Counted from the first letter of the stretch, positions 36,615-64,000 are shown. The stretch is DNA of 64,000 nt from an uncultured delta proteobacterium (GCA_963706575.1 CAVPNL010000013.1:32001-96000), one strand, 5' to 3'. Notes: generated by a model not told the origin, from the sequence alone. Numbers and translations: made by a program.

Positions 36615-37394
36615 ATGTTCGATTGCGCCTACCTGATTGAAATCCTAACCCCCCTGAGATCCGATCAAGAAAACGTCAAAGAAAATATGGGGCGTTTTGC
36701 CGGGCGTTACCGCCGCATTATGGATTCAGGCTGCGGGGTGTCTATTCCGGACAATCCCATGGGCCGGCCGCGCTATAATGCCCTGGAAGCAATCGATAGT
36801 TGCGGCCTCTCGATCGATCCGCAAAGAATGGTAATAAACCTAAATACGTTCCACACCAAAGACGAACTGGATGGTGTGCTCAGCAGGGCCTCATCAATGG
36901 GTGTCAAATATCTTCTGATTATCCGGGGTGATGGTGGACCGGACTTGGCAAAGCTCAATCCCCAGAGCATTGGCGGGCAAAAGACCATCGCAACATCCAT
37001 TGACCTGATCCGCTACATCAACACAGGGTATGCGGATAGCTTTATCACCGGTGCGGCCTTCAACCCGTATAATCCGATCGATTTTGAAACCCGGCGGTTG
37101 CAACAAAAGATGGCAGCGGGCGCCAAATTTATCATCACCCAACCGATCATCGGCCAGGATCCCCATGTGGATGCACTTCAAAATTTGGGTATCCCCGTTG
37201 TCATCGAAGCCTGGATGTCAAAGAATATCGATCTTCTGTATAAGAGTGTTCGAAAACAGAAAGATGCGTCATCCGAGGTGTATGATCCCGCACAAAACCT
37301 AAAAGTTCTGCACGACGCCTACCCGCAAAACTGTGTGTATCTTTCGATGCTCAGCTTTAAACAGGACTGGAAGCATCTCCTGCCGAAGTTATAG
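36615..37394 (+). CDS. Methylenetetrahydrofolate reductase (MetF)-like flavoprotein
   Basis: IEILTP, SIPDNPMG, LIIRGDG, AFNPY, K.AAGAKFIITQP. Confidence 0.75.
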   Translation: MFDCAYLIEILTPLRSDQENVKENMGRFAGRYRRIMDSGCGVSIPDNPMGRPRYNALEAIDSCGLSIDPQRMVINLNTFHTKDELDGVLSRASSMGVKYLLIIRGDGGPDLAKLNPQSIGGQKTIATSIDLIRYINTGYADSFITGAAFNPYNPIDFETRRLQQKMAAGAKFIITQPIIGQDPHVDALQNLGIPVVIEAWMSKNIDLLYKSVRKQKDASSEVYDPAQNLKVLHDAYPQNCVYLSMLSFKQDWKHLLPKL

Positions 37395-37570
37395 AAGCGG
37401 TTGCCGGTTGTCTGAGTGTAAAAATTCTGAATTTCAACTTACCCTTCCAAGCTCGAAACTTCAAAGGCTCGCTTGATTCCCGATGATCAATCGTTATCAT
37501 ATTAGAAGGATAGGTTTCAGACATTGTATGCAGGACACATCGTTTTAGAAGCGCATGAAATGGAGATGAT

Positions 37571-37828
37571 ATGTTGAATCAAACAGAATCAGTGAAATCC
37601 CGAATTGATCCGGTGTGCGGCATGTCCGTAAATCCCGGGACGACAAAAATAATAGCGACCATCGAAGGACGGCAGTATTATTTCTGCGCGGAAGGCTGCC
37701 GCAAGGCATTTGAGGAAAACCCTGGAAAATATATCGAGCCGGAATGTGCAAAACCCAAAAGCTGGTGGGGGCGCTATATGGCCAAACTTCAGAAAGCCAC
37801 TGGCGGCAAGCCGATGAAATGCCACTGA
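37571..37828 (+). CDS. YHS domain protein
   Basis: DPVCGMSV, YYFCAEGC..F..NP..Y. Confidence 0.9.
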   Translation: MLNQTESVKSRIDPVCGMSVNPGTTKIIATIEGRQYYFCAEGCRKAFEENPGKYIEPECAKPKSWWGRYMAKLQKATGGKPMKCH

Positions 37829-37901: not shown

Positions 37902-38474
37902 TTAACGGGAATTGCCGGTATCATATTGGTTGAGAAGTTTCTGGACCCCTTTGAAATACGGCAAATGCGGACGCATGTATTTGAAAAATATACGGCAAAG
38001 GATGTATATTGGAATGAAGGTGAAGATATATCCTACCGACTTTCCGAAAATCAGCGACAGCGGAAATGCCAGATCAAACTGCACCTCGGAAAATCTCGTC
38101 TGCATCCACCCCAGTGCAAATGGTATGGGCCACAGGATCCCGGCGGAATAGGCCACCATCGTAAAGAAGTGCTTTCCCCAGACATCGGTCGCCTGCTTGT
38201 TTAAAGATTTGTAACCGTCTTTGTCCCCGGCACGGTAAGCCGCTATGGAAAGCATCTCCTTTTCCTTCATTTCCTTGGACATGGAATCCAAATAACGCTT
38301 GTTGAACCGGATGGCCAGGGAAATGCTCAACTCGCCGATGACAATGCAAATAAACGCAAGGATCGTGGTGCCGATGAAATAGTCGATAAGGCCATAACCC
38401 GAGATTCGGTAAAAGGTGATCAAAAAGCTGTCCGCCTGCAGGGCAAGCGTATCAAAAAGGCCGTAGATATCCAT
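37902..38474 (-). CDS. Hypothetical membrane protein downstream of the TauE gene
   Basis: Hydrophobic segments around a coiled region; LWPIPFALGWMQ.RF; start set at MDIYG (38474). Confidence 0.7.
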   Translation of the reverse strand: MDIYGLFDTLALQADSFLITFYRISGYGLIDYFIGTTILAFICIVIGELSISLAIRFNKRYLDSMSKEMKEKEMLSIAAYRAGDKDGYKSLNKQATDVWGKHFFTMVAYSAGILWPIPFALGWMQTRFSEVQFDLAFPLSLIFGKSVGYIFTFIPIYILCRIFFKYMRPHLPYFKGVQKLLNQYDTGNSR

Positions 38475-38648
38475 GAATATCTTTTGGTTAAAGTTGCTGC
38501 CCTTCTTCGCCCCAATGTTCCCAATTTGCAAAAGAGCGCTTTACCTTAACATTTCAGCGGATGGGGGATTAACCTGCGGCTGTTCGGGACCGAACTCAAA
38601 TAGATGTTCGGCCCCGAACCCGCTACACTCAGAGCGCCCGAGGGCCTA

Positions 38649-39792
38649 TCATAGCATTTGAATGCCGAAAAAGCCTCGCAGGGTGTATCTTAAGCCGATG
38701 TACAGCGCCAAAACGATGAATATCCCTTTTAAGACCTTGGCGGGTATGTACTTGCCGGTCCTCGGTCCGATCATGGAACCAATGAAGATGCCGATCAACT
38801 CCGCTCCGATCAGGGTCCAATGGACCACGACTCCCTTCAAGACCATGAAATTGAAGATGGCAAAAATCATACCGATCAACACCGAAAGCGCCGAAGTTCC
38901 CGCCACCACGAACATGGGCAGCCCGACCACGCTGGTCAGGAAGGGCACGTAGAGAAATCCGCCGCCGACACCCAAAAATGAGGCAATACAGGAAATAAAA
39001 AACCCACCGACGAAGGCCCATATCGGACTGAAGGTGAATTTTTGTCCGAAAAAGGAAAATTCGGTTTTGACTAAACTCCATTTCAGCGTTTTGATGCCCT
39101 GCTCGGTGATGTCCTTTTTTTCTTTGATGCTTGCTTCAAATGCCTTGGCCGCCTCCTGGGAGGATTTCTTTTTGGCCTGTCCCTTGGGGGTCATTTCGTA
39201 GATCATGAACCCGCCGATGACAAAAACGCACAGCCCGAACCAGCCCTGATATTGCGAGAAGCTGATTTTGCCCGCCGTGGTAAAAACCACCAGCAGGGTG
39301 GCAAAAAGGGCTCCAATCCCCATGAAAAAACCCAGGGCTGTGACCAGCCGTTTTTGCCGGGCGTAGTTGATGCTGGATACCAGGGCTGATAGGCCCACCA
39401 GCCACTGATTGGAAACCCGGATGCTGTCGGTAACAAGCTTGTTCAAACCCGGCGCAGACGCTTTAAAGGTCTTGGCATAGGTACCGAGTCCATAGATGGT
39501 CATGTGGCCGACGCCGGCCATGATTCCCCCAAAGGCGCCGACGGTGGAGAAAATCCAACCCACCCAGATGGCCCACAAAAGACCGATAATGGGATTCAGC
39601 TTCGGGGACCGCCCGGAATGCCCAGATAGCCCTTCTCCGCATCGGGATTGATCTGTCCTTTTTCGGTCCCCTGAGCTGCTTTGCGATCGCTTCCTCCACC
39701 GTCTCGGCTGAGGCATCACCGGCTAAAATAAATGGGACAGCTAATGTGAAAAGCAGCAAAATCGATCCGACAACCAAAATAGTTTTCCTCAT
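38649..39792 (-). CDS. Sulfite exporter TauE/SafE family protein (two frameshifts near 39605 and 39680)
   Basis: GWIFSTVGAFGGIMAGVGH, FLGVGGGFLYVP, VAGTSAL; N-terminus MRKTILVVG with RBS AAGGAGG, rejoined as AIAK-AAQGTEKGQINPDAEKGYLGIPGGP-KLNPII. Confidence 0.85.
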
Positions 39793-40301
39793 GTCCTCCC
39801 TCCTTAAAATGTGAATTGATCAGTTAGCCCTAAAGGCCTGTCTCATGCAGCTGTTTTGTATTTAAACACCATTACGATATGATTTGATATCAGCAGATTA
39901 ATAGTTCCCAGATTCGGAAGTCCTTAAAAATTGGATATTTTTGAATAATTAAAGTAAACTGAAGTTTAATTCATAAAGGCCTCATGTTCATATCAGTGCA
40001 ATAAAAACATTGCAATTTTATTTTTTTTCAGCATTGTTTACCATTCTTTTTGACTTAACTTTTTTCCCATTATCTAATATAACGTATCAAAATTATGAAT
40101 AGATTGCAGATCTTCTACCAGGAGCCGCAATCGGTGCTAAAACCGGTGCAAGCTGTTATAATTATTGCTGAAGCAGAATCAAATGGTAAAGTGCCGTTTT
40201 CGAAATGGGCACTATTCGGATCGCATCATATATTGCTTTTTGTTCAAGGATTTTGTAATGAGTCCAATTTGAAATTTTACTGCGGAGGAGAAATTAAAGT
40301 C

Positions 40302-42406
40302 ATGAAAGAATCGGTATTCAGTATTTGCGGAATGTGCACGGTCAGATGCCCCATTCAAGTCGAGGTTGAAGACGGGGTTGTCAAATGGATTGAAGGCAAC
40401 CCCCAGGATCCGGGTATGGCCGGACGCCTGTGTGCCAAAGGCTCCGCCGGCCTTGCCATGCTTTATGACTACGAAAGACCCCAGCACCCCATGATCAGAG
40501 AAGGCAAGCGCGGAGAAGGCAAATGGAAAAAGGCCACCTGGGATGAAGCCCTGGACTATATCGCCAAAAAATTGAAAGCCATCATCAAAAAGGATGGTGC
40601 CAGGAGCAATTGCGCTGAGTGATCGCGGCGGACCGTTTCGCGATATCCACCGCAGTTTTCTGAGGGCCATCGGTTCGCCCAACTACTTCAACCACGATTG
40701 CACCTGTGCACGCAACGTTCAGCATGCCGCCCTGTCGCTTTTTGGCTCCGGCCGCAAGACCTTTAATTATGATTACGGCAACTGCAAGCATCTGGTTCTA
40801 TACGGCCGCAATGTATTTGAGTCCTCTGCGGGTCAAAGCAGGCCGGTAAAATTATGGACATGCTCGATAAGGGCGGAAAAATTACCTACATCGACCCGCG
40901 GGCAGCCGGCACCGCCATGAAGGCCACCCGATACTGGGCGATTCGCCCGGGCACGGACTATGCCCTCAACCTGGGAATTATCCACACGGTGCTGCGCGGA
41001 CAAGCTCTATGATGCCGAATTCGTCAGACAGTGGGTGTTGGGATTAAAAGAGCTGGAATCATTTGTGTCTCCTACACACCGGAGTGGGCCGCTCAGGAAA
41101 CCGGAATTCCGGCCAGATGAAATCATTGCATTTGCGCATGAAATCGCCGAGGATCGACCGGCGGTCATTTTCCATCCGGGCTGGATGGTGGCCCGATATA
41201 CCGGATTCGTTTTACGCAATCCGATCGATCTATATCTCTGAACGCTCTGATGGGTGCATTCGAATCGCCCGGCGCGACTCTTTTTCCAGAAGGGCCCCGG
41301 GGATGTCGGAGAAAAGGGCCTGAAATCCCTGATGGATACCATCCCCAAGCCCGAAGAAAAACGGGTGGACGGATGCGGCTGGAAATACAAGCATTTCGAA
41401 GCCGGACCGGGATTGTTGCATTTGATGTATCAGGCAATTTTGAGCAAAGAACCCTATCCCATTAAAGCCTATATCGCTTTTCGACATGACCCCTTGCTGT
41501 CGTTGCCGGACCCGGAAGCCCAGAAGAAAGTATTCGATAAACTGGATCTGCTGGTCTCGATAGACGCTAATTACAGCGAGACGGCCTGGTATGCCGACGT
41601 GCTGCTGCCGTCGGCGACCTATCTGGAAAAATCAAGCGTTTTATCAACCGGTAAGGGCCTCAAACCCCAGTTTCAGATGCGGCAAAAGGCGGTGGATCCC
41701 CGTAACGAGGCCAAACCCGACTGGTGGATTTTCAAATCATTGGCCGAGCGCCTCGGGGTCGGTAAATATTTTAAATTCAGCGATATCGAAGAGTTCTGGG
41801 AATGGCAGCTGGAAGGCACTGGCGTCTCGGTGACAGATCTGGAAAAAAAGGGATCCGTCGCCCTGACCGATAAGCCCGTCTGGTGGGATCGCCTGCAAAG
41901 ATCTTAAATTCAAAACGCCTTCGGAAAAAATTGAATTTGTGTCCAGCCGCCTGGCCGAAAGCGACATCGAATCGTTCAAACCCTATGAGCGCCCGAAACA
42001 ACCGGAGCCGGGATATTTTCGACTGGCATTCGGCAGAAGCCCGGTCCATACCCACGGCCGCACTCAGAACAACCCGGTCCTCAGCGAAATCATGCCCGAA
42101 AATTCATTATGGATCAATGTTGATGAGGCTGCTAAACTGGAAATCTCCGATGGTGACCGGGTTCAGGTCACATCTTCCGACGGCAGCCACAGCGGCACCA
42201 TAAAGGCCTTTGTTACCGAATTTATCCATCCGGAGTCGGTGTTCATGGTCCATGGTTTTGGCCGCAAGGTCCCTTGGCAGACCCGCGGGTACAACAAAGG
42301 GCTGGGTGATTATCGCTTTGAAACTGGCCTGCTGGATGTTTATGACCCGGTCGGCGGCGCCATCGCGCTGATGGAGTGTTTCGTTAAAGTTGAAAAAGTC
42401 TCATAA
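40302..42406 (+). CDS. Molybdopterin oxidoreductase catalytic subunit (PsrA/PhsA-like, no Tat signal), broken by about 10 single-base indels
   Basis: CGMCTVRC..LCAKG FeS motif, NHDCTC, IDPR, IRPGTD, ADVLLPSATYLEK, C-terminal HTHGRTQNN..WIN..A..I.DGD; pieces recoverable across ORFs 40095, 40594, 40960, 41063, 41250, 41254 and 41939. Confidence 0.88.
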
Positions 42407-42431
42407 CAGAAATGGAATCGGAGGAATATCC

Positions 42432-42935
42432 ATGAGCAAATATTACATCTACCAGGATACCCGGCGATGCATCGGGTGCTTCAGCTGCGAGTCCCATTGC
42501 AAAATGAAAAACAATCTGCCGATCGGGCCGCGTCTAACCCAGATTGTTTCGGTCGGTCCTAAAAAAGTCAACAATTTGCCCCGTATGGCCTGGGTGTTCA
42601 TGCCGTGCTTCCACTGCCAGGATCCGTGGTGTGTGTCGGCCTGCCCGACCGGGGCCATGCAGAAACGGCCAAAGGATGGCATCGTATTTGTCGAATCCGA
42701 ACTGTGTGTGGGCTGCAAGGCCTGCATTACCGCCTGTCCCTGGGGGACACCGCAATGGAATCCGCAGACGGGTAAAGCCGTTAAATGCGATTATTGTATG
42801 GACCGCGTTGACCAGGGTTTGCAACCGGCCTGCGTCACCAAATGCATCACCAAATGCCTTCATTTCGGTGAACCGTCAATTAAATCTAAGAGCCGGAGAG
42901 AACGACACGCTCAGCAGGTTGCCGATTTTGACTAA
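42432..42935 (+). CDS. 4Fe-4S dicluster electron-transfer subunit (PsrB/DmsB-like)
   Basis: CIGCFSCESHC, CFHCQDPWCVSACP, CVGCKACITACP, CDYC..PACVTKC; RBS GGAGG. Confidence 0.93.
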   Translation: MSKYYIYQDTRRCIGCFSCESHCKMKNNLPIGPRLTQIVSVGPKKVNNLPRMAWVFMPCFHCQDPWCVSACPTGAMQKRPKDGIVFVESELCVGCKACITACPWGTPQWNPQTGKAVKCDYCMDRVDQGLQPACVTKCITKCLHFGEPSIKSKSRRERHAQQVADFD

Positions 42936-43022
42936 AACCGAAACAATTCATTTGGATGAATCGCATCTGCGTTGAATTTAGGGATCAGCTAATAGCGCAT
43001 TTTCGGCATAGGAGAGGAAAAA

Positions 43023-45179
43023 ATGCCCGCTCAGATCTGCCCGGTTCACCAGACCGTCACAACGCTCGGTGAAATGATCAACGCCGGCCGGTTGAAAACC
43101 CCCCGCAATCGTTGGACAGTAGAAGAAATACGAACACTTTTCAATGATATTGCCTGGGGCAATGCCGGCGCCGAGCATCTACCGGCGGTAGAGGCCAAAT
43201 TGCAGCAATTAAAATCAGAGTGCGCCGATGACGCCTGTCGTGAAGTTGCCGATTTTATCGAATCAGCGGTTTCCCAAAATCGGGAAGTTTTCACCAGTCA
43301 TATCGATACCCACAACTGCCCCACGGGCGAATGTGTGAAACTCGCACCGGCGCCCTGCCAGATGACCTGTCCCGCCGGGCTGGATATCCCCACCTATGTC
43401 ACCCTGATTGGCTTGGGCCGAGATGCCGAAGCCATCGATGTCATTCGCAAAGATTGCCCTTTCCCCTGGGTCTGCGGGCTGGTTTGTACCCGCCCCTGTG
43501 AGTTTATGTGTGTGCGAGGCCGCATCGACACGTCGATCGCCATTAAAAACCTCAAAGGCTTCGCGGCCGAGCGGGCCATGTCGGAAGGCAGTTATCGGAA
43601 TCCTTCAAGGGAGCCCGCCAAAAACAAAAAGGTGGGGGTGATCGGCGCCGGGCCCGCAGGGCTGAGCGCTGCCTATTATCTGGCACTGAAAGGTTATGGT
43701 GTCCGCGTTATCGAACAGCACCCGGTGGCCGGGGGTATGCTGTTGCTGGGCATTCCCCGCTATCGGTTGCCGCGCGAAATCATCGACCGTGAAGTCGAAA
43801 TGCTGCGAAACCTGGGGGTCGAATTCAGCTTTGACACACGTTTTGGAACCGACATCACATTTGATCAATTAAAAGCGGAAGGCTTTGCAGCCTTTTTCTT
43901 TGCAATCGGCGCGCATCTGTCATTTCAATTGAACATTCCCGGTGAGAAGGATTTTTCACAGGTGATTGAGGCGGTCGATTTTTTACGGCAGGTGGCCCTG
44001 GGCGATCGCCACCCCCCCGGAAAAAAAGTCATCGTTATCGGCGGCGGCAATGTGGCCATTGATGCTGCCCGGACCTGTTTGCGCCTGGGCTGCGAATCCG
44101 TAGTCCTGGCGTACCGGCGAACAAGGGCGGAAATGCCGGCCGACATAGAGGAGATTGAGCAGGCGGAAGAAGAAGGTGCCCGATTCGAATTTTTAAACAT
44201 TCCTTTAGAGATTGTTGGCAGCCAGGGCCGGCTTGAAGGTCTCAAATGCCTGCGGGCCAAATTGGTGAGCATCGAGGGACAGGACCGTAAATTTCCAAAA
44301 GCCATCGATGGCAGTGATTTTGTCATCAAAGCCGATGCGGTGATTCCGGCCATCGGCCAGCAGGTGGATGCCGCCAGTCTGGAATCTGTGGCCGGACTGG
44401 ATTGGACCCGTCGCAAAACCATTCAGATCAATACGGTCACCACCGAAACCGGCGTAGCGGGTATTTTTGCAGCCGGTGACGCCGCTACCGGACCGGCCAC
44501 GGTCATCGAAGCCATCGGCGGCGGCAAGCGGGCGGCAGAATCCATACACCGCTATCTGTCCGGAATACCCCAGCCAAAAATGCCGCCGGTCCCCAGCCGC
44601 CGGGGACGAATCGAATGGTTGAAGGTGCCCGCTACCACAAAAATGACCCTGAAGCGACCCGATATGCCATTGCTCAATATCGACCGGCGACGGACGACGT
44701 TTCAGCAGGTCGAGTTGGGCTACTCGGAAAACATGGCACGGGAGGAAGCACGCCGCTGTTTGCGTTGTGATATCTGTCTGCGCTGCGGGAAATGTGTCGA
44801 GATCTGCCGCGATAAAATGGGGGTGGATGCGCTGCAAATGGGTTATTTTGACTTTGACCATCCGGTCGCAACAGATTATAGAGTCACCGAAGAACGCTGT
44901 ATTCTGTGTGGTGCCTGTGCCACCAATTGTCCCACCGGTGCCATGAAAATGGAAGATAGAGATGATGAACGGGTATTGTCGCTTTGCGGCACGATCCTCA
45001 ATCGCCAAAAACTGCTGCACTGTGAGATGTGCGGAACCGTTTTGGGACCGGCACGCTATCTTGATTTTGTTAAAAGCCGCACCCGGGCAGTGGCCCGGGT
45101 AGCTGACGATCGCAATTTGTGCGAAATATGTGCCAGGCGGTCAACCGCCAAATCCAGCGCCGATGATGCACCGGTCTGA
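43023..45179 (+). CDS. FAD/NAD(P)H oxidoreductase (GltD/NfnB/SfrB-like) with NuoF-tail-like N-terminus and C-terminal FeS module
   Basis: HIDTHNCPTGEC, APCQMTCPAG, CGLVCTRPCE, GAGPAG, GGGNVAID..YRR, GDAATGP, CLRCGKCVEIC, CILCGACATNCP. Confidence 0.92.
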   Translation: MPAQICPVHQTVTTLGEMINAGRLKTPRNRWTVEEIRTLFNDIAWGNAGAEHLPAVEAKLQQLKSECADDACREVADFIESAVSQNREVFTSHIDTHNCPTGECVKLAPAPCQMTCPAGLDIPTYVTLIGLGRDAEAIDVIRKDCPFPWVCGLVCTRPCEFMCVRGRIDTSIAIKNLKGFAAERAMSEGSYRNPSREPAKNKKVGVIGAGPAGLSAAYYLALKGYGVRVIEQHPVAGGMLLLGIPRYRLPREIIDREVEMLRNLGVEFSFDTRFGTDITFDQLKAEGFAAFFFAIGAHLSFQLNIPGEKDFSQVIEAVDFLRQVALGDRHPPGKKVIVIGGGNVAIDAARTCLRLGCESVVLAYRRTRAEMPADIEEIEQAEEEGARFEFLNIPLEIVGSQGRLEGLKCLRAKLVSIEGQDRKFPKAIDGSDFVIKADAVIPAIGQQVDAASLESVAGLDWTRRKTIQINTVTTETGVAGIFAAGDAATGPATVIEAIGGGKRAAESIHRYLSGIPQPKMPPVPSRRGRIEWLKVPATTKMTLKRPDMPLLNIDRRRTTFQQVELGYSENMAREEARRCLRCDICLRCGKCVEICRDKMGVDALQMGYFDFDHPVATDYRVTEERCILCGACATNCPTGAMKMEDRDDERVLSLCGTILNRQKLLHCEMCGTVLGPARYLDFVKSRTRAVARVADDRNLCEICARRSTAKSSADDAPV

Positions 45180-45238
45180 AACCGACAGAACAAATGGTAA
45201 TGCATTAAAGCATTAAAATGAAAGTCAGGGTGAAACAT

Positions 45239-45451
45239 ATGGTTTTTCGTCGCGGTCAAAAAGTCGAAATCTTCAAACGCTCCACTGATGAGAGCTGGGA
45301 AAGCTACATGGATGCATATGTGGGTCTGCACGGTATCATCACCGACCCGGACAGCACCATAAATGACCCGGATGCCCTCGTGGAAGTGAGTTTGGAGGGC
45401 AAGGGCACCCACCGTTTTCCGCAGGATTGCATTCGGCTGCTGGAGGACTGA
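45239..45451 (+). CDS. Small hypothetical protein (SH3-like beta barrel possible)
   Basis: MVFRRGQKVEI..YVGLHGIIT..VEVSL..HRFP; lies inside the operon. Confidence 0.65.
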   Translation: MVFRRGQKVEIFKRSTDESWESYMDAYVGLHGIITDPDSTINDPDALVEVSLEGKGTHRFPQDCIRLLED

Positions 45452-45499
45452 CAAAGGACTTTTGGCAAATACCCGATTGAATTTACAAGCACAAGGTCC

Positions 45500-45949
45500 A
45501 TGAAAGTACATGAATTGTTGCCTCTAAAATCTCGCCCGGTTTACACGCTTAGCAGTGATCAAACCGTCGATGATGCCATCAATCTAATGACGGCAAAAAA
45601 GGCAGGTGCCTTGATCGTCACCGAAGCCGATCATCCGGTGGGCATATTCGCGGAAAGGGATGTCTTCCGGGCTCACATTCGAGACAAAACCGCTGCGTTT
45701 ACGGATATTAAGCTGAAAGATGCGATGAGTCCTAAATTGTTGATGGCCAAAATGGAAGACGAGGTCGGCAGCGTCATGTCCATGATGATTCAGGCCAATA
45801 TCAAGCACATGCCGGTTATCGCAGAAAATCAAATCGTTGGCATGCTGACACTTCCGGATCTTATCGAACACCAGTTCGATATGCTCACGGAAGAGCTTCA
45901 TCATCTTCGAGAATACATTGAGGATCTGCATCATGCCGGGCGCGATTGA
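45500..45949 (+). CDS. CBS domain pair protein
   Basis: TVDDAINLM..GAL.V, VGIFAERD, IKHMPV..VGMLT..DL. Confidence 0.92.
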   Translation: MKVHELLPLKSRPVYTLSSDQTVDDAINLMTAKKAGALIVTEADHPVGIFAERDVFRAHIRDKTAAFTDIKLKDAMSPKLLMAKMEDEVGSVMSMMIQANIKHMPVIAENQIVGMLTLPDLIEHQFDMLTEELHHLREYIEDLHHAGRD

Positions 45950-46035
45950 CCGGTCGCCTCGCTTCTGCTGTGAACGCCGGTGGATACCCGCAACCCGCAG
46001 CTGCCTGCTGCCTTTTTTCGCATGAGGATCAAAAC

Positions 46036-46797
46036 ATGATCAAGATCATAATCGATGGACGCGAATATGAGGCTGAAAAGGACATAAGCGTCCTGGAAAT
46101 CGCCAGAATCAACCATATCCCCATTCCCACCCTGTGCTTCCATCCGTCCCTCAGACCCTCGGGATCCTGCAGATTATGCGCTGTGGAGGTGCCGGGAAGA
46201 GCGACGGGCCGGCAGATAACCATGTTATCCTGCATTCTGAAGGTAAAAGATGGCTTGGTCGTGAAGACTCAGGGGGAGGCGGTTCGGCGCGCCCGCAGCC
46301 GGGCGTTTCGAAATCTGTTGAATATGGCGCCTCAGGCCAAACGCATTATCGATCTGGCAAAAGCCTACGATATTGACCCGGGTCCGCCGCCGGACGGTTG
46401 CGTGCGCTGCCGTCTGTGTATCCGGGTGTGTAAAGAAATTGTGGGGCCCGCTGCGCTGAAAATGGAAAAACGCGACGGGCTCAATTTTGTCGTCCCCGTC
46501 GAGGGCCGCTGCATCGGCTGTATGACCTGTGCCAATATTTGCCCCACCGATGTGATCAGCGCGGTTGATTCCGAAAATGTCAGAACCATATCGATTCGGG
46601 ATGAAATCATCGGTAAACATCCGCTGGAACGCTGTGAAGGCTGCGGCAAACTGTTCGCGACCCCGAAGTTTTTAGAACATATCCACAAGCGCACCGCCAC
46701 TCACATCGACACCAAATCTCACCATACATATTGCCCCACCTGCACCAAACTGTTTTCAGACCGCGTCGAGACGTTTAAAAAAAGACCCGGTAAATAA
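46036..46797 (+). CDS. 2Fe-2S / 4Fe-4S protein (NuoG/HydA N-terminal-like)
   Basis: IPTLCFHP..GSCRLCAVE..LSC, CVRCRLCIRVC, CIGCMTCANICP, CEGCG..CPTC; RBS GAGGA. Confidence 0.9.
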   Translation: MIKIIIDGREYEAEKDISVLEIARINHIPIPTLCFHPSLRPSGSCRLCAVEVPGRATGRQITMLSCILKVKDGLVVKTQGEAVRRARSRAFRNLLNMAPQAKRIIDLAKAYDIDPGPPPDGCVRCRLCIRVCKEIVGPAALKMEKRDGLNFVVPVEGRCIGCMTCANICPTDVISAVDSENVRTISIRDEIIGKHPLERCEGCGKLFATPKFLEHIHKRTATHIDTKSHHTYCPTCTKLFSDRVETFKKRPGK

Positions 46798-46820
46798 TCG
46801 AGGAGTCGGGGTGTTTTCCC

Positions 46821-46918
46821 GTCATGCCCGCGTAAGCGGTCATCCAGCCTTCGTCCCCGCGCATGCGGAGATCCAAAACAAAAAAACATTTCTGGATTCC
46901 CGCCTGCGCGGGAATGAC
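46821..46918. repeat. GTCAT(G/T)CCCGC-type REP-like inverted pair after the oxidoreductase operon
   Basis: GTCATGCCCGCGTAAGCGGTCATCCAG ... CTGGATTCCCGCCTGCGCGGGAATGAC; single copy at 59255-59282. Confidence 0.75.
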
Positions 46919-47090
46919 AAGTCTTGAATAAAAAACACTCCGACCCATCAAATAATCATCGGGTGAGAACATCTTTCAGTTTCAAACAGGCCCTTATCGC
47001 CGCAACCCTTTTCATCGGGCTTTGAATGGTTACATTGATCGTATTGACTCAATTTCCGAACTGCTGTTTCCAAGAAAGATAATTGTGAAG

Positions 47091-48449
47091 ATGAACCCGG
47101 CTGAAGCGAATTTGCAAATCGATAACAAAGAAAGCAATCAATACGCCATCCCGCATCCGACATTCGGGGAGGCGTTCAGATTCTGGGTAAAGCTCGGCTT
47201 TATCAGCTTTGGCGGACCGGCCGGACAGATCTCGATCATGCATCACGAACTGGTGGATCAAAAAAAGTGGGTCAGCAACGAACGTTTTCTCAATGCGTTG
47301 AACTATTGTATGCTGCTGCCCGGCCCCGAAGCCCAGCAACTGGCCACATACATCGGCTGGCTGCTGCACAGGCTCCCCGGCGGTATTATCGCCGGCGCAT
47401 TTTTCGTTATTCCATCCATCTTTATCCTGTTCGCTCTAAGCTACACCTATGCCGCATTCGGCACGATTCCCTGGGTGGCCTCTGTGTTCAGCGGGTTGAA
47501 AGCGGCCATCATGGCAATCGTCGTATCGGCGGTGATCAAGATCGGCAAAAAGGCCCTCAAGAACAGTGTCATGGTAGGCATTGCCGCCCTTTCGTTTATT
47601 GCGATTTTTTTTCTCAAGGTCCCATTTCCGCTGATCGTTCTGGGCGCCGGCCTCCTTGGTCTGGTCGGCCGTTATGCCATACCGGCAAAATTTGATGCCA
47701 TCAAAGGCAAGGATGCTCGCGATTTCGATTCAGGTTATGTGCAGATTTGCGAAGATACTGAGGTGTGTCACATCAATCCGTCCACCAAAAGAAATATTAT
47801 TCTCATCGCCGTATTTGTTCTGCTGTGGTTGGCGCCGGTGATGATGCTTTATGTCTTTCTGCCGCATCGTGTTTTTTACACCGAAGCGCTGTTTTTTACC
47901 AAGGCTGCTTTTTTAACTTTCGGGGGCGCCTATGCCGTTCTGGCTTACATCGCCCAGGCAGGGGTCGAACAGTATGCCTGGCTGACGGGCCCACAGATGA
48001 TCGACGGTTTGGGACTGGCCGAAACCACTCCCGGCCCCCTGATTATGGTCGTTCAGTTTGTCGGTTTTATGGCCGGATGGAATCATCCTGCAGGCTGGAG
48101 CCCGGTTGTCGGGGGGGTGGTCGGTTCACTGGTCGCCACTTACTTTACCTTTCTGCCGTGCTTTCTGCTTATTTTTCTGGGTGGTCCATATATCGAAAAA
48201 TTTCGTGACAATGCCACCCTGTCCGCTGCCCTTTCCAGCATCACCGCCGCCGTGGTCGGTGTCGTTCTCAATCTGGCGGTTTGGTTCGGGCTCCAGGTGC
48301 TCATGCCTGCCGATGCAGGCTTCAACTGGTTTGCCGCCGCCATCGGATTGGCTGCCTTTGCATCGATACAGTGGCTTAAGGTTGGCATGACGACGGTCAT
48401 CGCAGCCGCGGGTATAATCGGATTCATCTGGTATCAGTTAATTTTTTAA
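47091..48449 (+). CDS. chrA: Chromate efflux transporter (long-chain CHR)
   Basis: LGFISFGGPAGQI, LLPGPEAQQL, TFGGAYAVL, AETTPGPLI. Confidence 0.93.
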   Translation: MNPAEANLQIDNKESNQYAIPHPTFGEAFRFWVKLGFISFGGPAGQISIMHHELVDQKKWVSNERFLNALNYCMLLPGPEAQQLATYIGWLLHRLPGGIIAGAFFVIPSIFILFALSYTYAAFGTIPWVASVFSGLKAAIMAIVVSAVIKIGKKALKNSVMVGIAALSFIAIFFLKVPFPLIVLGAGLLGLVGRYAIPAKFDAIKGKDARDFDSGYVQICEDTEVCHINPSTKRNIILIAVFVLLWLAPVMMLYVFLPHRVFYTEALFFTKAAFLTFGGAYAVLAYIAQAGVEQYAWLTGPQMIDGLGLAETTPGPLIMVVQFVGFMAGWNHPAGWSPVVGGVVGSLVATYFTFLPCFLLIFLGGPYIEKFRDNATLSAALSSITAAVVGVVLNLAVWFGLQVLMPADAGFNWFAAAIGLAAFASIQWLKVGMTTVIAAAGIIGFIWYQLIF

Positions 48450-62844: not shown

Positions 62845-64000
62845 TTAAGGGATCTTCTCAATCCGGACGGGAATGGCTTTTAACAGGGGAAAACCGCTGA
62901 TCGGGTCATTGATATTATCGTAGGTTACCAGATTAACATTGCTATCCTGCCAGCCGTGTGGGATTTCAACGAAACCCGGAAGAATTTGTGCGTCGTTGGC
63001 TATTTTTACCCGGACTTGCACCGCGCCGATTTCCGATACGACCCTGACCTGTTCCGTGTTTTCAATTCCCAGGCTGGCGGCATCTTCAGGATTCATCTCC
63101 ATTTCTGCGACGGGAAAGGCTTTACGAAACTTTGGAATATTATGATATCTCGAGTGGTAGTAGAGCGGGTTGCGTGCGCCGGTGTTTAGTACAAAAGGAA
63201 AATCGTTGCTGGGATTACGAAGGTAACGGGGCGCGATATACTCCGGGATTTCGGGGAGATTGAGTTCTTTCAAATATTGTGATGTAAATTCAATCTTTCC
63301 GGACCTCGTCGGGAAGGGCCGGGCTTCATATTTCTTATAACACATGGGTTTGTAAACAATACCTTCGGAATGTTTTTGCAGCGCTTCCAGAGAAATGCCG
63401 GTCGGCTCCAGAATCCAGCGGTTCACCTCTTCTTCGTTTTTCCACGGAAAATATTCTTTCCCAAAACCGAGGCGGTGGGCCAGATCATGCCACAGTGAGT
63501 ACTCATCATGCACACCCTCAATCTCCGCCACTTTGGCGGTCAGCACAACCCTTTGGTATTTTGGATGAAAATGGAGCTCAGATCTTTCAAGAAAGCTGGC
63601 CGCCGGCAGAACATAATGCGCCAGCTGGGCCGTTTCAGTGAGGAACAGATCATTTACCACCAGAAGTTCCAGTGACGAAAGCGCCTGAACAACTTTTCTT
63701 GTATTGGGATTGTTAATCGCCGGATTGGCTGCGGTCATGATGATTCCTTTGAGGGGGTATTCACCGTTTCCGAGCATGTAATCCATGGCTGTCATGGTGT
63801 GGCACTCCCAGCGGTAATCATAAAGGACCGGAAACTTATCCGCCCCGATCGGCTTCTGATCGCGGAGTGAAATCTCGTCACATAAGGAGAGTTTGCGCTC
63901 TCCCAGTGCTTCAGGCCAGGTGAATCCCCCTTTGATATCAAGCGCGCCGCAGAGGGCTACCAGGCAAGCAATCGTGCGGACGTCGTTGACACCATTTTCC
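62845..64000 (-). CDS. Molybdopterin oxidoreductase (DMSO reductase family), C-terminal part; 5' end lies outside the window
   Basis: Frame open from 64000 (ENGVNDVRTIACLVALCGALDIKGG) through DLFLTETAQLAHYVLPAA, TRSGKIEF, HSRY, EMNPEDA, PHGW. Confidence 0.92.
   Translation of the reverse strand, partial: ENGVNDVRTIACLVALCGALDIKGGFTWPEALGERKLSLCDEISLRDQKPIGADKFPVLYDYRWECHTMTAMDYMLGNGEYPLKGIIMTAANPAINNPNTRKVVQALSSLELLVVNDLFLTETAQLAHYVLPAASFLERSELHFHPKYQRVVLTAKVAEIEGVHDEYSLWHDLAHRLGFGKEYFPWKNEEEVNRWILEPTGISLEALQKHSEGIVYKPMCYKKYEARPFPTRSGKIEFTSQYLKELNLPEIPEYIAPRYLRNPSNDFPFVLNTGARNPLYYHSRYHNIPKFRKAFPVAEMEMNPEDAASLGIENTEQVRVVSEIGAVQVRVKIANDAQILPGFVEIPHGWQDSNVNLVTYDNINDPISGFPLLKAIPVRIEKIP

Follow-up and report, generated by a model that had tools for sequence, protein, structure and literature searches.

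Within a window of 64,000 nucleotides from an uncultured delta proteobacterium (GCA_963706575.1, CAVPNL010000013.1:32001-96000; all positions count from its first letter), we analysed a redox gene cluster at 37902-46797. Six genes lie on the plus strand at 40302-46797, with intergenic gaps of 25 to 87 bases. They encode a catalytic molybdopterin-binding subunit (MopB) related to PsrA and PhsA, a PsrB/PhsB-like iron-sulfur (Fe-S) subunit (hereafter FeS), an NfnA/GltD-like flavoprotein, a protein of 70 amino acids (aa), a CBS protein and a WorA-like protein. The first four constitute a conserved core, the catalytic subunit carries no export leader and no membrane-anchor gene accompanies it. We think that the operon probably, though far from certainly, encodes a soluble cytoplasmic molybdenum (or tungsten) enzyme, wired through Fe-S clusters to an NADPH flavoprotein and reducing thiosulfate or a closely related sulfur compound. 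Family and domain calls were made by Pfam and NCBIfam profile searches, which recovered every gene listed in the first-pass annotation of this DNA.

A PhsA-like catalytic subunit without leader or anchor

The catalytic gene (40302..42406, plus strand) encodes a leaderless PsrA/PhsA-like protein of about 700 aa, of the type that binds a Mo/W-bis-pyranopterin guanine dinucleotide. The Pfam families PF04879, PF00384 and PF01568 (Molybdop_Fe4S4, Molybdopterin and Molydop_binding) match its fragments. The ATG at 40302 is preceded by a GGAGGAG box, and the CxxCxxxC motif follows seven codons further on. The intact ortholog aligns end-to-end with PsrA of Thermus thermophilus (2vpw; residues 17-711, E 1e-119), beginning past the leader of PsrA, and scores 404 bits in this comparison against 201 bits with FdhF. 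Among the 26 NCBIfam families matched, PhsA (NF012032) comes first with 549.2 bits, against 271 bits for the alpha subunit of formate dehydrogenase (Fdh-alpha), and no other MopB paralog encoded in the genome exceeds 291 bits when scored with the PhsA model. These scores uphold the grouping with PsrA and PhsA. We rejected an identity as formate dehydrogenase, since FdhF and Fdh-alpha score about half as much as PsrA and PhsA. A MopB tree (FastTree) agrees, as the family forms a single clade with a support of 100 and seven paralogs from this genome fall outside it. The first Cys of the CTCAR stretch in the ortholog aligns with the Cys of CTAPR in 2vpw, which we take to be the metal ligand Cys173 of PsrA, and it is invariant in all six aligned orthologs.

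To characterise the family at large, we used a pattern-based search of the species genomes of GTDB, which confirmed 583 relatives; counts for the nearest loci use the best 80 of these. Read from stop to stop, 80 of 81 full-length family members show the CxxCxxxC motif. None of these 80 has a Tat-type (twin-arginine) leader, and in nearly all of them a Met can be read a few residues upstream of the motif. A subgroup from soil metagenome-assembled genomes (MAGs) has an N-terminal extension of about 20 residues ending in GRRT, with no hydrophobic stretch after it. NrfD (PF03916) has six matches in the host genome, none of them on the contig of the window (C13), and the five redox proteins hold no hydrophobic segment. 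Hence, the proposal of a cytoplasmic, anchor-less enzyme is borne out. In an even sample of the phylum, 98 of 401 genomes encode a member of the enzyme family (E <= 1e-200), a count that misses the host genome itself, where MopB is broken into several frames. In one Desulfobacteraceae MAG, a MoCF_biosynth (MoeA/MogA-like) gene stands between MopB and FeS (L081:12109-13209), which fits a pterin-dependent enzyme.

The predicted electron-input module

The FeS subunit (42432..42935, plus strand, 167 aa) is leaderless and matches Fer4_11 with 92 bits. Its best NCBIfam matches, DmsB, NrfC and TtrB, are all under their cut-offs. It carries 16 Cys in four cluster motifs, and these are invariant across 19 sequences.

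The flavoprotein (43023..45179, plus strand, 718 aa; Fer4_20, Pyr_redox_2 and a C-terminal Fer4) starts with a helical extension, followed by two [4Fe-4S] motifs and by FAD and NAD(P)H folds that include the stretch YRRTRAEMPA. Its C-terminus consists of a 2x[4Fe-4S] domain and a CxxC...CxxC module; this part is a paralog of the module found in the WorA-like protein (32% identity). The top solved relative is NfnA of NfnABC (9bov_A, 369 bits over residues 110-590), and further ones are StnA (8oh5), an archaeal NfnA (9n5u) and NfnB (4ylf_B, 281 bits). The segment that is N-terminal in NfnB sits behind the flavin domain in our flavoprotein, i.e. the order is permuted as in NfnA. The stretch YRRTRxEMPA is common to the flavoprotein and all four structures aligned. 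NfnB binds and oxidises NADPH. The same is described for NfnA, whose FAD takes the hydride of NADPH and feeds single electrons into an Fe-S chain, as the non-bifurcating entry point of NfnABC (PMC11829005). The first-pass annotation had suggested NADPH from the YRR motif alone, and the comparison with NfnA and NfnB strengthens this suggestion. The locus holds no gene for an NfnSL small subunit ([2Fe-2S] plus a second FAD), its sole [2Fe-2S] protein being the WorA-like one, and neither a NuoF-like BfuB nor a NuoE-like BfuC is encoded in 37902-48449.

We predicted the complex of flavoprotein, 70-aa protein and FeS, scoring FeS as the partner, alongside three controls. The scores were 0.62, 0.63 and 0.63, and that of the best control 0.00. 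Of solved complexes, 116 of 157 reach the mark used for this score; of mismatched pairs, 2 of 215 do. The runs share at least 83% of their contacts, with a partner pLDDT of at least 80. In the predicted interface, the ferredoxin module at the C-terminus of the flavoprotein (residues 594-713) touches the cluster loops of FeS (residues 64-73 and 93-108). At the level of a model, this supports docking of the flavoprotein on the FeS subunit.

A four-gene core and its lineage variants

The host, presumably a sulfate-reducing bacterium of sediments, encodes dsrA (607.6 bits, cut-off 392.85), and its nearest relatives are MAGs labelled Desulfobacterales. In the even sample of the phylum, the 70-aa gene is present in 29 of 401 genomes, once in each; G238 has a second, partial match at a contig end. 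Taking the 70-aa gene as anchor, we surveyed 26 of these 29 loci. All 26 have the flavoprotein gene immediately upstream, FeS is adjacent in 25 and MopB lies within the locus in 23. The one locus without FeS ends at a contig end, and two of the genomes without MopB in the anchored locus hold exactly one MopB of the family elsewhere. Other genes are less constant: the WorA-like gene is found in 13 of the 26 loci, the CBS gene in 9, and the pair of a TauE-like gene and a membrane-protein gene in 9. From these counts, we define the conserved core as MopB, FeS, flavoprotein and 70-aa protein. Co-conservation is thus real for these four genes, and none of the three findings that would have refuted the first-pass annotation (a Tat leader or membrane anchor, grouping with formate dehydrogenases, lack of co-conservation) was made. 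Of the six-gene operon that the annotation drew, the CBS and 2Fe-2S genes are better regarded as accessory.

The picture is looser around MopB. In the nearest 80 loci, a set biased towards our query and with many loci ending at contig ends, a GltD-like gene lies within a few kb of MopB in 37, and in 14 the small protein is present as well. A TauE-like gene and a small membrane-protein gene occur together in 17 of the 80.

The flavoprotein gene itself varies between lineages. In seven loci from Desulfobaccales and Desulfacinum MAGs, the GltD match starts 1-3 kb past FeS. In the two of these that we scanned, one labelled Desulfacinum (L029:13322-16744) and one uncultured delta proteobacterium (L073:12749-16138), the GltD-like protein is a single frame of about 1130 aa with a NuoF-like N-terminus; Pfam recognises Complex1_51K, SLBB_2 and NADH_4Fe-4S in the latter and only SLBB in the former. 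Such a fusion would give two nucleotide sites in one chain. A more distant GltD-like gene (36% identity) comes after MopB and FeS in nine loci of MAGs from soil, which carry the labels Chloroflexia, Actinomycetes, Solirubrobacterales, Acidobacteriota and Bacteroidales. In the one of these nine that we scanned (L055:12627-18499), a 246-aa gene of no assigned family is followed by a 776-aa GltD-like gene; downstream of the latter are pieces resembling pyruvate-formate lyase and glycyl-radical proteins. Loci from Desulfobulbia, Desulfovibrio and Thermodesulfatator have the catalytic and B subunits only, often with the TauE pair present.

The 70-aa protein and the accessory genes

The 70-aa gene (45239..45451, plus strand) is directly 3' of the flavoprotein gene. 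It had been listed with 77 codons, and we correct its start to 45239. The protein is 54-97% identical over 17 loci, and a search of 1.84 billion representatives returns 46 at E <= 1e-10. It matches no Pfam family. Its predicted fold is a small SH3-like beta-barrel (pLDDT 79.9), for which Foldseek finds nothing in the PDB at E <= 0.001; the best match is PetP (2n5u, E 0.014, TMq 0.72). The likeness of the model to PetP, to the variable chain of ferredoxin:thioredoxin reductase and to PsaE is weak and we treat it as a lead. In one genome (G429, L119:3644-6010), flavoprotein and 70-aa protein are fused in a single frame of 789 aa. The barrel would serve as a structural subunit of the flavoprotein.

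The CBS protein (45500..45949, plus strand, 149 aa) is a stand-alone CBS pair, matched by Pfam CBS in two stretches with 71 bits. It would act as an optional nucleotide-responsive regulator. The adenylate sensing put forward in the first-pass annotation is, for this pair, only a family-level inference.

The last gene of the operon encodes a WorA-type (short BfuA-type) [2Fe-2S]/[4Fe-4S] protein (46036..46797, plus strand). Its start had been placed at 45946 and we move it to 46036, which gives 253 aa. The protein combines a [2Fe-2S] domain with 2x[4Fe-4S] motifs, ends in a CxxC...CxxC module and has no flavin domain. Its residues 2-238 align with residues 5-235 of WorA (9mqx_A, E 8e-36). WorA is described as receiving electrons from the poly-[4Fe-4S] subunit of a pterin enzyme (PMC12318220). 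In our operon, the WorA-like protein would give electrons a second, optional way in or out, e.g. to ferredoxin.

Two genes are divergent from MopB, on the minus strand. One encodes a transporter of the TauE/SafE (TSUP) family whose N-terminus forms a signal or anchor segment (38649..39792; PF01925, 77.5 bits against a gathering cut-off of 32.6). The other encodes a small membrane protein of no Pfam family, with about three hydrophobic segments (37902..38531; the probable start is a Met near 38474). Together they would move a sulfur anion, bringing substrate in or letting sulfite out.

Frameshifts in the catalytic gene

In the assembly, MopB is split into at least five frames. Relative to intact orthologs, it has nine single-base insertions and one deletion between 40605 and 41896 (40605, 40825, 40840, 41001, after 41066, 41115, 41200, 41237, 41277 and 41896). 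The TauE gene is in two frames because of one single-base indel near 39608. The remaining genes from 31.7 to 48.4 kb each match their ortholog in one frame. Intact MopB orthologs, 82-91% identical, are present in the genomes of nine relatives (707-726 aa in the same genus), and the intact TauE ortholog has 435 aa.

Most likely, the indels of both genes are assembly errors and the catalytic gene is functional. Short-read contigs from four public runs of four studies, metagenomes of estuary and sediment, lack the MopB indels. These contigs have no extra base at 40825, 40841, 41001, 41115/6, 41203, 41236, 41277 and 41892/41895, and a C is added at 41066. Contigs of two runs likewise lack one base at 39608 in TauE. 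One example of 122 bases shows one gap and no other difference from the window; another, spanning 40605, shows one gap and four differences over 265 bases. None of the public runs holds at least half of the sampled words of 39500-42500, the best share being 0.36. With the indels projected out, the repair envisaged in the first-pass annotation gives 697 MopB codons free of stops, with 92% protein identity to the ortholog and a dN/dS of 0.058.

One might argue that the operon is dead in this host and that the catalytic gene is a true pseudogene with ten frameshifts, since the indels do stand in the assembly and other MopB paralogs are in pieces as well. We hold this to be very improbable. Natural gene decay shows a bias towards deletions, whereas insertions make up nine of the ten indels here. 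The indels are absent from contigs with only 0 to 4 differences from the window, the downstream genes are all intact, and the repaired frame is free of stops at a low dN/dS. It is this combination of contigs, reading frame and insertion excess that makes us favour assembly error over decay. The fragmented paralogs of the same assembly (G000 C4:61144-63126, C22:21718-23607 and C14:19542-21741) may be genuine pseudogenes or again stretches with local indels; local patches of low quality seem to recur.

Mechanism, substrate and rival readings

In the mechanism that we propose, hydride transfer from NADPH would reduce the FAD in the NfnA-like subunit. Single electrons would cross the two [4Fe-4S] clusters of the flavoprotein and the ferredoxin module at its C-terminus, move on to the four clusters in the PhsB-like subunit and reach the [4Fe-4S] cluster and then the Cys-ligated pterin centre of MopB. 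There, thiosulfate would be split to sulfite and sulfide.

Thiosulfate is favoured as substrate on three grounds: PhsA is the nearest family, a similar enzyme becomes more abundant in Dissulfuribacter thermophilus, and mutants of another lose fitness in Desulfovibrio alaskensis G20. In D. thermophilus, the cytoplasmic PhsAB-like enzyme is more abundant during thiosulfate disproportionation, and a TauE-family protein and an adjacent membrane protein rise with it (PMC13490349). In G20, PhsAB mutants show their lowest fitness on lactate/thiosulfate (PMC4215793). By analogy, these data point to thiosulfate turnover in our system too.

Several observations weigh against the reading of an NADPH-linked thiosulfate reductase, and it must be interpreted with care. 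The catalytic gene is, in the sequence as given, broken. The score on the PhsA model remains below its equivalog cut-off of 694 bits. The pocket also differs from that of PsrA: at the positions of His145 and Arg332, which we take to line the active site of PsrA, MopB has Arg and Trp. Standard potentials are about -402 mV for thiosulfate/sulfite plus sulfide and -320 mV for NADPH, so that thiosulfate cleavage driven by NADPH would be uphill unless sulfite is very low; we estimate that about 1 micromolar sulfite would suffice. In the biased set of nearest loci, 43 of the 80 have no flavoprotein gene near MopB, hence the module is not obligatory for the enzyme family. The score of the predicted complex may owe something to the likeness of this interface to solved contacts between ferredoxins and WorA-type proteins. 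The enzymes of D. thermophilus and G20 are likened to ours by their published description, and may lie outside the clade. Finally, the PhsAB-like enzyme of Desulfolithobacter dissulfuricans showed no clear response, and no member of the enzyme family has been assayed (PMC9751629).

What else might the operon encode? The same architecture might act on zero-valent sulfur, as a cytoplasmic NADPH:polysulfide or persulfide reductase of the PsrAB type. We consider this unlikely. The top solved relative, 2vpw, is presumably the polysulfide reductase of T. thermophilus (its entry title reads 'thiosulfate reductase'), and at the sulfur/sulfide potential of about -270 mV, NADPH could drive the reaction unaided. 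Yet, the pocket residues that we attribute to PsrA are not kept, the proteomic and fitness signals in relatives concern thiosulfate, and an anion transporter of the TauE family suits an oxyanion better than sulfur. Quite improbable, to our mind, is that the enzyme works oxidatively, as a cytoplasmic dehydrogenase of sulfite (or of sulfite plus sulfide) reducing NADP+. TauE-family proteins are annotated as sulfite exporters, the standard potentials would easily let sulfite oxidation reduce NADP+, and Desulfocapsa sulfexigens reportedly has a sulfite oxidoreductase activity of unknown identity. But the catalytic subunit is closest to reductases that cleave S-S bonds, and SoeA, the known sulfite dehydrogenase of the cytoplasm, is a MopB of another kind and of much larger size.

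A more elaborate scheme keeps thiosulfate as substrate and deals with its low potential, which is near that of H+/H2, the couple served by confurcating hydrogenases. The operon would then encode a flavin-based electron-confurcating thiosulfate reductase, in which NADPH is combined with a second carrier, i.e. reduced ferredoxin arriving through the WorA-like protein, or NADH in the forms fused to NuoF. Run in reverse, thiosulfate formation would reduce both carriers. We consider either direction unlikely. Over its full length, the WorA-like protein is homologous to the adaptor in a bifurcating complex (PMC12318220), and the NuoF-fused GltD-like forms (L029 and L073) would offer two nucleotide sites. 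However, the form encoded in the window offers a single flavin site, its locus lacks BfuB and BfuC genes, the FAD of the homologous subunit in NfnABC is a plain, non-bifurcating entry point for NADPH (PMC11829005), and 13 of the 26 anchored loci have no WorA-like gene. The possible bifurcation raised in the first-pass annotation is thus not indicated for the window form. If the scheme were true, the reversed enzyme would conserve energy through the reduction of ferredoxin. It would also be the first bifurcating enzyme built on a molybdoenzyme of PsrA/PhsA type, and a central unrecognised step of sulfur disproportionation.

Relation to known systems

The catalytic fold, the domain order, the [4Fe-4S] motif, the ligand Cys and the four-cluster B subunit are shared with PsrABC of T. 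thermophilus (2vpw-2vpz) and PhsABC of Salmonella. The latter two are Tat-exported and face the periplasm on a quinol-oxidising anchor of NrfD type, whereas here a flavoprotein replaces the anchor. Cytoplasmic MopB enzymes coupled to a GltD-like or another NAD(P)H flavoprotein are known, namely SfrAB of Geobacter sulfurreducens and the NAD(P)H-linked assimilatory nitrate reductases. However, their catalytic subunits are formate-dehydrogenase-like or of Nas type, not PsrA/PhsA-like, and to our knowledge none of them has a 70-aa subunit.

The flavoprotein resembles NfnA and StnA (9bov, 8oh5, 9n5u) in its FAD/NADPH module, its permuted order and the ferredoxin-like domain that follows. NfnA, however, joins a [2Fe-2S] N-terminus, the flavin module and a MopB-like domain in a single chain, where we find separate genes. 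The MopB-like domain of NfnA is formate-dehydrogenase-like, pterin-free and has been called an evolutionary remnant (PMC11829005), whereas the MopB of our operon is a complete PsrA/PhsA-like protein. NfnA also works with BfuB and BfuC, while our locus lacks BfuBC genes and its MopB has its own B subunit. That modules fused in NfnA and StnA occur here as separate genes bears on the origin of Bfu-type transhydrogenases. A similar contrast holds for WorA of WorABCSL from Acetomicrobium mobile (9mqx). The alignment runs end-to-end and includes the CxxC...CxxC module, yet WorA feeds a bifurcating BfuBC core and its partner pterin enzyme belongs to the AOR family, whereas here there is no BfuBC and the enzyme is a MopB.

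The closest parallels are DITHS69_2028/2027 of D. thermophilus, PhsA-1/2 of D. dissulfuricans and PhsAB of G20, which likewise consist of A and B subunits, with no Tat leader and no PhsC/NrfD. Their link to thiosulfate comes from proteomics or mutant fitness (PMC13490349, PMC9751629, PMC4215793). Both PMC13490349 and PMC9751629 leave the electron source of such anchor-less enzymes open and ask for biochemical studies. NADPH is nowhere mentioned in the main text of PMC13490349, though its supplementary S9 may list the neighbours of DITHS69_2027/2028, and our literature search found no paper tying PhsAB-like enzymes to a GltD/NfnA-like flavoprotein. In contrast to the published enzymes, ours shares one operon with an NfnA-like flavoprotein, with the 70-aa gene and, in about half of the loci, with a WorA-like gene. 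Anchor-less PhsAB-like enzymes are thus already in print with no named donor; what appears new, judging from our literature search, is the flavoprotein link. In D. dissulfuricans, the locus tags of PhsA-1/PhsB-1 (GF1_30490/30500) adjoin those of Nuo subunits (GF1_30510/30520), the latter being detected during thiosulfate disproportionation only (PMC9751629). This adjacency may be another wiring of the same enzyme.

The operon thereby offers a testable electron donor for part of the PhsAB-like family, an NADPH flavoprotein with a predicted docking site on the B subunit. As enzymes of this type have recently been implicated in sulfur disproportionation, the flavoprotein is predicted to supply their missing donor. 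The 70-aa gene is a sharp marker of the system, present in 29 genomes of the even sample against 98 for the enzyme family, and can be used to choose strains.

A candidate operator and neighbouring genes

The region between the divergent genes contains the dyad TGCAATAAAAACATTGCA at 39997-40014, a candidate operator 288 bases 5' of the MopB start codon, in which an AAAAAC spacer separates TGCAAT from ATTGCA. The TGCAAT-N6-ATTGCA element reported earlier is present, but its single copy is not significant by itself: the window has one against 0.38 expected, and 33 of 100 shuffles contain at least one. Relatives provide some further sites. Of 48 regions upstream of MopB, 9 contain dyad-like sites with at most two mismatches (11 sites), whereas 300 mononucleotide shuffles average 1.05 and never exceed 5. 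Those with a spacer made of an A run are found in the window, L040, L043 (three sites), L053, L076 and L081, and L076 has an exact copy at a similar distance upstream of MopB. The dyad is not found in the same-genus loci L018 and L019, nor in L021. Among the genes flanking seven type-1 loci and the window, Pfam reveals no shared DNA-binding protein near the dyad.

Other signals were examined in the same region. A sigma-54 promoter upstream of MopB, suspected by eye (GGCAC...GCA near 40208), was rejected for its wrong spacing. Between 39700 and 48600, sigma-70 promoter-like sites number 7 against 7.5 in shuffles, and terminator-like sites 9 against 11.8.

Downstream of the operon lies a gene for a membrane protein of the ChrA family of chromate ion transporters (47022..48449, plus strand; Chromate_transp, 259 bits), which directly follows the cluster in the same genus only (L011, L012/L018 and L019). 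On the other side, a short MTHFR-like protein (259 aa) and an 85-aa protein with a YHS/TRASH domain adjoin the cluster at 36615-37828, and the position of the MTHFR-like gene is kept in same-genus loci. A second MopB paralog, sharing about 29% identity with the PhsA-like MopB, is encoded at the window's right-hand end (62854-64000; G000:C13:95331-96887, minus strand); its open frame has 715 aa.

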